From positions 1 to 64,000 of the IMG/VR virus record IMGVR_UViG_3300023117_000010: a DNA stretch of 64,000 nucleotides, one strand, 5' to 3'. How positions within the stretch are numbered: the stretch's first letter is position 1; the number at the start of each line of letters is the position of its first letter. Shown here in pieces: positions 8,901 to 30,265 of the stretch. The position numbers and the translations under genes are program-made. The notes below the pieces were generated by a model. That model was not told the origin of the DNA. It ran no database searches and was given only the letters and a program-made list of their open reading frames with translations. This DNA comes from a virus.

Positions 8901-11900
8901 TGCATATTCTATTCCAAGATTCCGAACAGACTGTTCAATATACTCAAAAAATTCCCATCTGTTTTCTTCAGTTCTTAGTTCTTCTGGGACTGTATTATAA
9001 AAATATCTTTCTGCTTCATCAATAAGGCTTTGTTTTAGCCTTTCATACATTCCAAGGAATTGCGCTCTTTCCCAGTATGCTATATTTTTTGGATTTAACC
9101 CAAGAGATTTTCCTGCAAGATTGGCATATTCTGCTAATAAATATTCTTCTGGATCATAAAAATTATTATTTATTCTGTCGTTTGATTGTTTAGTATGAGA
9201 GCCTTTCCACCATTCTTCGGGTTCCCATTTTTCTTTTACTTCTTCTGTTTTCTTTTTACGTTCATCTTCGTTAATTTCTTGATGAAGTACTTCGTTGGCT
9301 TTTTCTTGACGCCGATCCCACTCTTCTGAAGTTTTTGCACCAGTTTCTATAATTTTTTCAAAATATTCAAAGATATCTGTTTTATTGCCAAACCAATCTT
9401 CCATAAATTGAACTTCTGGGTATTTATCAACCCATTTTTTTAATTCGTTTAAAACTTTTTGAATTTTAGGAATAGCGGAAGGAAAATATGAAAGCCATTC
9501 TTGTTTATCATATTGGCGATTAGCAAGTTGATCGTTTATACTATCAAGAATTGGATGTAAACTTTTTTTAATTTCTTTTTCAGTAGGTTCCCAATTTTTG
9601 TTTATATTTTTACCACATTCATCACATTGCTTCCACCAATCATCTTCATCGGGATATTCATCTTTAAATAACGAGGGGTAAGAACCACCTTCAAAGTCAA
9701 TATAATCTCCGGGTTTTAGATACTGCATATACTTTTGGGCACAATCTTTACATATGTCAGACCCATAATCATCTTGATTTTTAAATATAACGTAGTGTTC
9801 GTCGCGTGAGTCTAAAGGGCTACTTGTTTTAGAGGTAAAGTCCCAAGGTTTTTTAGGGAAATCTTCTTCTGTTGCCCAGTTTAATCTGTCTCCCTTTGAT
9901 CGGTCGTAATCAACCTTCCATTTGTCAGCGATATCTCTGCGATGTTTCTTGGCCTCATTTTCGTCTGTCTCTTCTGGGCCAAGGTACGGCTCTCGTGAGG
10001 GGTCAACAGGTTCATACAAATGTCTTGCGTCTGCTCCCAAAGAGTCTTCCATCTTTCGCACACTAATATTACTCCGAAATCCTTCGTCTAACCCCTCGCT
10101 CCAATCATCGTATCCGCTGTTTAGACTGGCTTCCTGAAGAACTTCAGCGGCATTGTGAAAAGAATAAACTTCATCAAAGTCCCACATATTTGCATATTCA
10201 AGAAGATTAGAATGTCCTTCTTCGATATTTTTTATTTCGTCCAGTCTAGCCGCAATCGGCCAACTTTTTACTTCAGCCGGGTCAAAATCCATAAAGTAGG
10301 AGGCAATTGTTTTTCCCACTCTTTTTGCATCTTCATAAATTGCATCATAGATATCCCTTGAATATCTATCAATAATTCCGTAAATTTCTTCTTCGACGGC
10401 TTCAATAAACTTTTCTTTTACTACTTGTTCATCTTTAATATTATATCGTTTAACAAAACTATCGGCAAAATTATGTACTTCGTCTTCAAGATAAAAAAGA
10501 TCGTTAGAAAGAAGTCTTTTATCTGTCACCAAATCACTAATAATATCGGCCTTTTCCCAGTACCGTAGATTGGTAGGGTTAACAGTTATGCTTTTGTTTT
10601 TCTGCTGCACATAACTTTCAACTATAACTTGTTCAAGATCATAGAACTTATCTTTCATCTCTTGAATTAATTCAGGGGTGGCTGCAATAACCCTTTTCCG
10701 TTTAGAACCCTTCCACCAGTCGGCTGGTTCCCATTTGTCAATAATTCTTTTACGGTGCTTTCTGGCTTCGTTCTTATCTGTTGCCTCTGGCCCCAGATTA
10801 GTTTCCATATTTTCTGGGAGTGGGTTATATAAGTCATAGAGATTAGAAGGAATATAACCCATATCATCTGGTTCTGGCTGCTCAGATTGGTATTCGAATC
10901 CCCATTGATCCCAAAGTTCTTGATAATCAACATCTTTGCGTTCAATTAAATTGACAGCATCATTTTCTTCTTCGTTCATACGATCAATAACTTTATTTAT
11001 TTCTTGAACAAAATAATCAAACGACTGGCCGTTTTCCATTATATTAAAAAATCTGTCGTAATCGTCATCATCATCGTAAGTTTCAGACCAGATTCTTTCT
11101 TGAATGTCTGGGTTGCGAGCAGAACCTTTCCACCAACTTTGCGGCTCCCATTTGTCTTGAATATTTTTTTGACGTTTTTTATTATTTTGTATATCATATT
11201 CTTCAGAACTCATATCTTCAGGCGAAATAGAAATATTTTTATTTGAATTATTTAATCTTTTTTTTATATTTATTCTGTAATTTTCTATTATGCTTTGAAA
11301 TTTATTTATGATTATTTCGTAAGCATCTTTTTTAAATTTCAAAAGAGAATTTTTTGGTATATTTTTATTTCCAAAATTGTTTATATGCCATTTAATAAAG
11401 TCGTCAAATGGTTTAAACCATTCTGGGTTTCCATATCCTAAAAATTTTAATGTTTCTTCTGCTGCGGCTTCATCTGAGTGATATCGTAAAAAAGACTTTT
11501 GATAATATTCATTAATAAAATCACTTAAAGAGATTCTAAAAAAGGCTGCTGCAAATTTTTCAGCAATTATTAATGGGTCTGTGTCTGAACTTGACCCCTT
11601 CCACCAACTAGCCGGTTCCCATTTATCTTTTATTTCTTGTTGTCTTTGTTGATTGTGTTTCTCTTGAGTCCAGCGGTTATAGAAATCTTTTTGAGCCTGT
11701 CGGTAAGATTTCTTTTTAGCCTCAATTTCAGTTTCATCAAGCCCACCAAATTCATCTTCCCAATCAACTGAAGATTCGTTTAGGAAATCGTCTACTGTTT
11801 CCCCACAATCTACACAAGTGAGCATTTGATATGGAGCATCATCTTCATGATAGTTGTACCATTCATCCCACGGAGCAATTGGGTTAGGAGAGCCATCTGG

Positions 11901-26240: not shown

Positions 26241-26289
26241 CAAAGTCATTACATTTATGTCTTGACAACAAAACGTATACGAGTAAAAT
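26237..26289 (+). promoter_or_regulatory. Early promoter P4
   Basis: ctaacaaagtcattaca...TTGACA-16-TAAAAT. Confidence 0.75.
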
Positions 26290-26764: not shown

Positions 26765-26956
26765 ATGATTACACTAAAAGAGGCACAAGAACTTGCTGAA
26801 ATTATTGGATGGCTAAATGCTATTTGCATGGACAGTCAGCCAGAGGACACTATTGTTATTACACCGGGTTTTAAGAGTGAGATTCGTAGGGCACTTGAAA
26901 TTGCTAACTTGGTTCAGTATGATCTTGAAAACAATAACCGCTCTGATGAGTCCTAA
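26765..26956 (+). CDS. Hypothetical protein whose 3' end overlaps the hammerhead
   Basis: ORF; its stop TAA falls at hammerhead stem/loop II. Confidence 0.6.
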   Translation: MITLKEAQELAEIIGWLNAICMDSQPEDTIVITPGFKSEIRRALEIANLVQYDLENNNRSDES

Positions 26957-26992
26957 AGAGGACGAAACGCCGTGAGGCGTCAGCGGGATTAT
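26934..26992 (+). ncRNA. Type I hammerhead ribozyme
   Basis: Stem I CCGCT/AGCGG; CTGATGA; stem II GTCCT-AAAG-AGGAC; GAA; stem III ACGCC-GTGA-GGCGT; predicted cleavage after GTC at 26981. Confidence 0.9.
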
Positions 26993-27265
26993 GGGAGAGT
27001 CTAAGAGGTTGCCACCAATTAGATAATCCGAACTCCGTGGCAACGGGGGAAAGCAGGGGGCAACACGCATGGGGGTTGTCCATCTAGACCTGACATAAAC
27101 CTGCAATACGACCCATGTGATAACAACCCGAATAATGATCTGTTCGGGCTACATAATATAACTAAATATAATAACTAAAGGAATCGGTTGTCGGTGACGG
27201 GTGAGCAGGTAGGTGTAGATCCAATTTGGTGACACCACTTGACTTGACTGTGGAACCGTCTATAA
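26993..27265 (+). ncRNA. Unclassified structured RNA region (hairpins and a pseudoknot)
   Basis: No credible ORF; several 5-8 bp helices and an 8-bp loop-to-tail pairing. Confidence 0.5.
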
Positions 27266-27272
27266 TATTTAT

Positions 27273-27370
27273 GCCCCTAATGGTCTAGTGGCAACGACGC
27301 CGGTATCACACAAGGACGCTTGTGATGCTTATGCGGAAGTTTATCGCGGGTTCGACTCCCGCTAGGGGCT
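27273..27370 (+). tRNA. tRNA-like element with an extended, non-canonical anticodon arm (no assignable anticodon)
   Basis: Acceptor GCCCCTA/TAGGGGC; D arm GTC-TAGTGGCAAC-GAC; T arm GCGGG-TTCGACT-CCCGC; no encoded CCA. Confidence 0.7.
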
Positions 27371-27396
27371 ATGCTTTATCAAAGAAAGGAAATAAT

Positions 27397-27546
27397 ATGG
27401 ACAATACAGACACAATCAAATGCATGTGTGGACACACCATTCCAGAGAAGGATGTTACTTATGTCAATCCAGCAACTAAGGCTGTGACTTGGACAGAGGG
27501 GCTTCCTTACTGTGGTTCCTGCGTCCCTGAAATCAAGGAGGATTAG
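27397..27546 (+). CDS. Small zinc-finger protein
   Basis: AAAGGA RBS; CMCGH...YCGSC. Confidence 0.65.
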   Translation: MDNTDTIKCMCGHTIPEKDVTYVNPATKAVTWTEGLPYCGSCVPEIKED

Positions 27547-30196: not shown

Positions 30197-30212
30197 ATAA
30201 AAGTATAAAATG

Positions 30213-30238
30213 AGAGGGGGAGCAATCCCCCTCTTTTA
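30213..30238 (+). terminator. Intrinsic terminator
   Basis: agaggggga-gcaa-tccccctct-ttt. Confidence 0.75.
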
Positions 30239-30265
30239 TGTCATTTTAATTGAGAAGGACTTTAT

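Follow-up and report, generated by a model that had tools for sequence, protein, structure and literature searches.

A hammerhead ribozyme, a structured RNA domain and a tRNA mimic form a conserved, putatively self-processing cassette in a large tailed phage

Results

Organization of the cassette

A type I hammerhead ribozyme, a gene-free structured stretch and an anticodon-less tRNA mimic follow one another in the DNA of a large tailed phage. The same succession is found in relatives of the phage, in which the middle of the stretch is occupied by a different RNA domain. We interpret the array as a conserved modular cassette of an early operon, which may process itself and release a swappable structured RNA along with the tRNA mimic. 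This reading we hold to be about evenly balanced between right and wrong.

The window, meaning the whole stretch of DNA analysed (64,000 nt), makes up the start of a 92-kb IMG/VR virus record. The source phage carries portal, terminase, primase/helicase and UvsX-like genes, and the sequencing runs bearing the stretch are mostly salt-marsh metagenomes. The cassette is located in an island of small genes, 13-15 kb long and all on the + strand, which has a G+C content of about 50% vs 35% genome-wide. The features of the region are the following.

26262-26289, + strand: upstream sigma-70-like promoter, TTGACA-16-TAAAAT, 11/12 match
26765-26956, + strand: upstream ORF of 63 aa, homologues P0002-P0006
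26937-26987, + strand: type I hammerhead (Rfam RF00163), predicted cut after C26981
26982-27106, + strand: core domain A', 125 nt, predicted four-way junction (MFE, shuffles)
27058-27081, + strand: hairpin GGGCAAC/GTTGTCC with a 10-nt loop, p=0.98
27112-27119, + strand: CCCATGTG, candidate partner of the loop CGCATGGG (27066-27073), 8 complementary bases
27127-27148, + strand: hairpin CCCGAATA/TGTTCGGG, p=0.98
27149-27175, + strand: AU-rich linker, of varying length in the alignment
27173-27209, + strand: 5' part of block B, 37/37 identical to L033 and L035, 28/28 to L036
27239-27266, + strand: internal sigma-70-like promoter, TTGACT-16-TATAAT, 11/12 match, in block B
27249-27267, + strand: 3' part of block B (TGTGGAACCGTCTATAAT), identical in 5/5 distinct copies
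27273-27369, + strand: anticodon-less tRNA mimic, 97 nt, 89-93% identical to relatives
27397-27546, + strand: downstream Cys-rich ORF of 49 aa, starting 27 nt past the mimic

The promoter at 26262 is the likely source of the transcript entering the cassette. The 63-aa ORF runs into the ribozyme, as its last six codons (NRSDES) and stop (26938-26956) are encoded by the 5' half of the hammerhead. Proteins P0003-P0006 are 53-87% identical to this ORF. Homologues below 90% identity have different ends and no hammerhead-derived tail, and the overlap of ORF and hammerhead is therefore specific to the lineage of the window. No terminator was found between the mimic and the downstream 49-aa ORF. Nine ORFs around the cassette gave no match in Pfam, and neither did the 138-aa ORF and the 63-aa family when used as IMG/VR protein queries. 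A strong bidirectional terminator-like hairpin, GGGGGAGCAATCCCCC, with T runs on both strands, is located at 30210-30239 of the window, at the end of the + strand early island.

Beyond the window the record hosts 11 tRNAs (83274-88028), 0/11 with an encoded CCA, and a CCA-adding enzyme of 659 aa (about 73380-75356, minus strand) featuring PolyA_pol, RNA-binding and HD domains. RtcB and Ro60 (TROVE) were not found in the records searched, which are incomplete (five for Ro60).

Conservation of the cassette in related phages

The same phage group supplies four more distinct sequences with the cassette, for a total of five copies. The four are L002 (same as L012, L037 and L038, of which L037 is a separate, shorter metagenome contig), L033 (same as L034), L035 and L036. 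All five copies keep hammerhead, ORF-free stretch, block B and mimic in this order. Portal proteins of the relatives are 83-87% identical at the amino acid level, and the neighbouring early protein was found in one relative, L002, at 55% identity. The gene neighbourhood of the cassette differs between window and relatives. A 49-aa gene located upstream in the relatives is absent from the genome of the window, and the L002 homologue of the downstream gene of the window has no cassette upstream. A hairpin, CCATCT-ATTC-AGATGG, lies in a conserved promoter-like stretch before downstream genes, past the mimic in L035 and L036 and at 6140-6220 in L002. Searches of 50,697 records of cultured phages with the cassette region (megablast, blastn) and with P0003 (tblastn) returned nothing, or chance matches in coding DNA.

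The hammerhead scores 28.5 bits against RF00163 (E 1.7e-4 in 1.5 kb), under the gathering threshold of 34. Its core is complete. CUGAUGA, GAAA and GUC are all there, stem I is open, and stems II and III are closed. Position N7 is U or C among the relatives, and both are permitted by the consensus. The 14 pairs of the hammerhead are kept in 56/56 cells of 4 distinct sequences, with two compensatory pairs (stems I and III), and the 24 pairs of the mimic in 94/94 cells of four sequences, with three compensatory pairs in the apical stem (CACAAG/CTTGTG vs CATGGG/CCCATG, the GACG loop being invariant); as four sequences were compared, these counts are suggestive and fall short of statistical proof. 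They suggest that hammerhead and mimic behave as selected RNA structures. The earlier note on this DNA had placed a hammerhead and a tRNA-like element at the two sides of a gene-free structured stretch. This holds in every copy, and both elements are conserved and covarying. Of the elements to which the covariation check on homologs proposed there would apply, hammerhead and mimic have compensatory pairs, and the copies of the core are all identical.

A marine metagenome DNA relative, X14, features 6 listed differences in 26765-26872 (108 nt) and 0 in 26873-27212 (340 nt), with at most 3 unlisted ones possible near contig ends. At 27212 it switches to a different apical hairpin, and its loose contig end resembles L036 more than the window. 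The pattern argues for strong constraint on hammerhead and core, or for a recent exchange.

The core is also represented in RNA libraries. The intervals 26994-27218 and 27026-27198 are represented by contigs assembled in two metatranscriptome studies, and the salt-marsh RNA runs X17 and X21 are among those with the core. The contigs indicate presence in RNA libraries irrespective of strand, DNA carry-over being possible. No RNA-library contig was found over 26869-26991 or 27219-27401; these are assemblies, so gaps prove nothing. In the RNA run X19 the flanks were assembled and the spacer is missing. Contig depths (11.4 and 7.4 vs 4) are unfit for ranking abundance. No RNA end is claimed, because contig ends differ by study and one of them falls at position 27212, which varies among strains.

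The spacer is a mosaic

The spacer separating the predicted cut from the tRNA-like element spans 26982-27272 (291 nt) and has no ORF of at least 30 aa on the + strand, in agreement with the 290 nt or so of ORF-free DNA described earlier. ORFs of 97, 59 and 35 aa on the minus strand overlap it, opposite to the direction of the whole island. No match to the spacer past the hammerhead (26988-27272) was found in Rfam 15, at gathering thresholds or up to E=10, in line with the earlier note, which could not match it to a known riboswitch or ribozyme. The whole spacer folds better than its shuffles (z -3.2).

The strings quoted in the earlier note were all located at the coordinates given there. Its helices fared unequally in the partition function. 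GGGCAAC (27058)/GTTGTCC (27075) and CCCGAATA (27127)/TGTTCGGG (27141) are both formed with p=0.98. The other three are disfavoured (p<=0.05): GTTGCCAC at 27008 and GTGGCAAC at 27037 pair with p=0.00, GCAGG at 27053 and CCTGC at 27100 with p<=0.05, and GACGG at 27196 and CCGTC at 27256 with p<=0.02. The view of the spacer as a single pseudoknotted RNA has to be abandoned. When aligned with the relatives, the spacer shares its ends, and the middle is non-alignable. It is a mosaic, made by a lineage-specific 125-nt core followed by generic parts that are common to relatives.

The core, or domain A', is closed by the helices 26983-26987/27100-27104 and 26989-26993/27094-27098, and its 5' closing strand is also a strand of hammerhead stem I. 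The MFE structure (-47.5 kcal/mol) accounts for 24% of the ensemble and has a z of -3.75, none of 200 shuffles being equally good. A' is known only from identical copies, which give no covariation for the core. Its sequence is absent from five related or other records, and no significant repeat or antisense match to it is found elsewhere in the genome. In the relatives the 130 nt directly 3' of the cut are occupied by domain A, which adopts a multi-branch fold (z -4.58), with three compensatory pairs in one of the hairpins. Searched with a covariance model that was built on A from four relatives, the window gave a best score of 7.8 bits (E 0.07), limited to a hairpin. With no match to the A model in the window and no A' in the relatives, the two are different domains. 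A' and A are alike in one respect. Both have a closing helix built from the bases just 3' of the cut, which thereby shares at least part of stem I's 3' strand. With this overlap, religation would be disfavoured once the cleaved RNA refolds.

The loop of the GGGCAAC hairpin connects the core to a second family of elements, here called motif X. The 18-mer 27062-27079, encompassing loop and 3' strand, occurs in IMG/VR in three unrelated contigs, L055, L056 and L057, and 27061-27080 corresponds to the 5' arm of motif X (18-20 nt identity). The conserved arms of the motif, AACACG-CA-UGGGGG and CCCCCA-GC-CGUGUUGG, frame inserts of 10-58 nt, and the top pair covaries. Motif X is found at L056:7712-7782, where it stops about 10 nt upstream of a tRNA-Met gene, at L055:9548-9592, and in tandem copies upstream of tRNA-Pro and tRNA-His on the minus strand of L057 (about 11510-11800). 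It is absent from Rfam 15, and blastn searches of 50,697 phage records with the L057 and L055 copies gave nothing, or chance matches in coding DNA. In motif X the 5' arm is paired to a complementary strand further downstream, as was proposed for CGCATGGG/CCCATGTG, which is possibly a pseudoknot, or the remnant of a motif X stem. The element at 27061-27080 and motif X are similar also in being sited upstream of a tRNA-shaped gene, and both fit the notion of a constant frame holding exchangeable inserts. They differ in the register of pairing, and the canonical 3' arm (CCCCAG-CGUGUUGG) is absent from the 92-kb genome at up to 3 mismatches, its place being taken by another 8-nt complement. Because this arm is absent, 27061-27080 would denote descent from, or recombination with, motif X, and not membership.

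From TAACAACC (at about 27121) through the CCCGAATA/TGTTCGGG hairpin into the linker, a weak but significant local similarity to the relatives is found (z 3.5). The two parts of block B, of 37 and 19 nt, which precede the mimic, are identical or nearly so among relatives. Conservation of block B as an RNA fold is not apparent. The 3' part of the spacer (27180-27272) folds no better than shuffles (z -1.2), and block B folds from all copies have z values from -1.2 to +0.6, none beating shuffles. The consensus fold is weak (alifold -7 kcal/mol), CGGU/ACCG being preferred over GACGG/CCGTC. Block B may act as DNA. Its pattern was found 4 times in 185,579 genomes, in all cases by chance in GC-rich coding DNA.

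A short frame is present in block B (27183-27230), in which an SD-like AAAGGA, a UUG and four conserved codons (MSVT) occur in every copy. Length and later sequence vary by copy, and some frames enter the mimic. The frame was judged probably non-coding, since lengths differ between copies; a leader-peptide role is the alternative.

The tRNA mimic

The mimic features a 7-bp acceptor, a D hairpin with GG and a T arm with a loop of the GTTCGA type. The position of the anticodon is occupied by a 13-bp bulged hairpin with a GACG tetraloop, which has no 5-bp stem with a 7-nt loop. Depending on options, ARAGORN gives conflicting calls, Cys(ACA) or Val(CAC) with a 6-nt intron, and calls no tRNA in the L002 mimic. 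In Rfam the best clan match is tmRNA (RF00023), which concerns the T arm and reaches 18.6 bits vs a threshold of 47; tRNA scores lower. The likeness to tmRNA and to YrlA/Y RNA resides in acceptor, D and T elements being kept, with a long helix replacing the anticodon arm. The difference is that the long helix of the mimic is capped, not open. Assignment to either class was rejected. The mimic is 97 nt long, has no tag frame and no pseudoknots, and its third acceptor pair is C-G, not G3-U70, as to tmRNA; no Rfam YrlA match was obtained, and no TROVE protein was found in five incomplete records, as to YrlA/Y RNA.

A 16-mer of the mimic hairpin has about 28 matches, nearly all coding or due to chance. 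The 16-nt hairpin CACAAG-GACG-CTTGTG of the window mimic is found in a 125-nt five-arm tRNA-like RNA of a different, 41-kb phage (L005:3542-3666, also in L015 and L016). Besides a T arm and three additional hairpins, this RNA possesses a 7-bp acceptor with ACC after it. It lies between ORFs, with no hammerhead.

Discussion

A processing model and its alternatives

In the scheme that we infer, for the cleavage sites as for the release of discrete RNAs and any action on other molecules, read-through transcripts would be cut by the type I hammerhead after 26981. The cut would leave a 5'-OH RNA, the first 12 bases of which, freed from stem I, would close the 125-nt four-way junction. The mimic would be recognised by the tRNA-maturation machinery, with RNase P acting at 27272/27273, trimming of the 3' end and addition of CCA by the phage enzyme. 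Expected products are a structured RNA that could reach about 290 nt, the 97-nt non-decoding tRNA mimic and the flanking mRNAs, set apart from each other. The internal promoter of this phage could also provide a direct start for the mimic. The middle domain would be exchangeable cargo, A' in the lineage of the window and A in the relatives.

The same elements might work in cis only. Hammerhead and mimic would separate messages and set their stability or translation, and the middle would trap the 3' strand of the hammerhead and block exonucleases. The cassette does lie between ORFs with no terminator, the next start codon being 27 nt past the mimic, and intergenic hammerheads of phages are known beside genes of polycistronic transcripts (PMC3088659). 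The cassette persists when an unrelated domain stands in for the middle, and in both domains the closing helix is built from the bases that come just after the cut. Such a function leaves unexplained the elaborate tRNA elbow with its invariant D and T loops; insulation would need no more than a simple hairpin. In X14, moreover, 340 nt that include the core show 0 listed differences, in contrast to the variable ORF beside them. We regard a role restricted to cis as rather unlikely.

Hammerhead, block B and mimic might also be a natural expression-and-processing platform that phages equip with different structured cargo RNAs, A' here and A in the relatives. Early in infection, cargo and mimic would then serve as decoys or sponges against host defence factors that bind RNA or target tRNA. 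Taken as a whole this proposal is unlikely; the anti-defence idea alone is plausible.

The internal promoter offers another possibility, in which the mimic, driven by it, is the sole product that matters, block B is promoter or operator DNA, and hammerhead and core are the 3'-end module of the upstream operon. The 11/12 sequence TTGACT-16-TATAAT is predicted to start transcription at about 27273, where the mimic begins. Block B is invariant as DNA with no significant RNA fold. Promoter matches of 11/12 number four in the 15-kb island, and all are on the + (coding) strand. L033 and L035 have the -35 box in common with the window. In this phage the mimic can probably be made directly from the promoter, and RNase P would then be unnecessary for it here. 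Against a promoter-only scheme, L002 and L036 keep TATAAT, have no -35 box and yet retain the whole cassette; in these copies the mimic must come from read-through, and this requires 5' processing. Across copies, 3 to 6 nt separate TATAAT from the mimic, and on inspection by eye the promoter lacks the upstream box reported for the other early promoters. It seems improbable that the promoter-driven mimic is all that matters. The proposal that RNase P makes the end at the mimic survives in part, as the internal promoter would make the enzyme dispensable here, and an origin of the mimic from its own promoter only is not supported by the copies that keep the cassette with no -35 box.

The core, or the segment 27050-27122 within the spacer, could be a new self-cleaving ribozyme, or a ligand-sensing switch for the downstream genes. 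It has a compact, significant fold adjoining the hammerhead. The possible loop-to-tail pseudoknot has a topology that we take to resemble that of the pistol ribozyme. The lack of any Rfam match, all known small ribozymes and riboswitches included, speaks against this reading, as do the lack of an expression platform and of a terminator, and the presence of an unrelated domain in the same place in the relatives. We consider it very improbable. Least credible of all is a functionless relic, a decaying tRNA gene with hairpin debris in a fast-evolving early region: the mimic does look like a rearranged tRNA, the tip of its hairpin equals a D-stem/anticodon-stem string of real phage tRNAs in L031 and L032, and only half of motif X is found in the core, but conservation is near-perfect where the neighbouring protein is 55% identical to its L002 homologue, compensatory changes occur in hammerhead and mimic, and X14 has no listed difference.

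Relation to known systems

The self-processing cassette has partial counterparts in other systems. In the MALAT1-mascRNA pair, a tRNA-shaped element recruits RNase P and sets the end of the neighbouring non-coding RNA. Stable RNAs C and D, encoded in the tRNA cluster of phage T4, are small RNAs of unknown function made by the tRNA machinery. None of these is related in sequence to the cassette, in which the 5' end would derive from the predicted ribozyme and processing is likewise predicted.

Intergenic phage hammerheads that flank genes in polycistronic RNAs have been described by Perreault et al. 2011 (PMC3088659). Type I and II hammerheads (RF00163) of phages and prophages similarly have the full catalytic core and three helices, and are found between polycistronic phage genes. 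The hammerhead of the window differs in always coming with a structured RNA and a tRNA mimic, in overlapping a stop codon and in its sub-threshold Rfam score. Theta ribozymes, which are minimal HDV-like ribozymes, are found next to phage tRNAs (Kienbeck et al. 2024, PMC10879173). In these too a small self-cleaving ribozyme and a tRNA-shaped RNA are associated in a phage, which implies ribozyme-assisted RNA maturation. The ribozyme is of another class, and its cleavage site is beside genuine tRNAs, whereas in the window about 290 nt separate the cut from a non-decoding mimic. Hammerheads between phage genes (PMC3088659) and ribozymes teamed with phage tRNAs (PMC10879173) are, in other words, already known. 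The literature search made for a unit composed of hammerhead, RNA and tRNA mimic retrieved no paper describing one.

The cassette enlarges the growing set of uncatalogued small phage RNAs made with the tRNA machinery. If the processing model holds, it would be a natural counterpart of the ribozyme-RNA-tRNA cassettes used in synthetic biology for precisely trimmed RNAs, with an exchangeable payload. Expressed early, a mimic with an intact elbow and no anticodon is a candidate for interfering with host defences or enzymes directed at tRNA. The existence of two unrelated payloads provides a built-in comparison toward what the cassette delivers.
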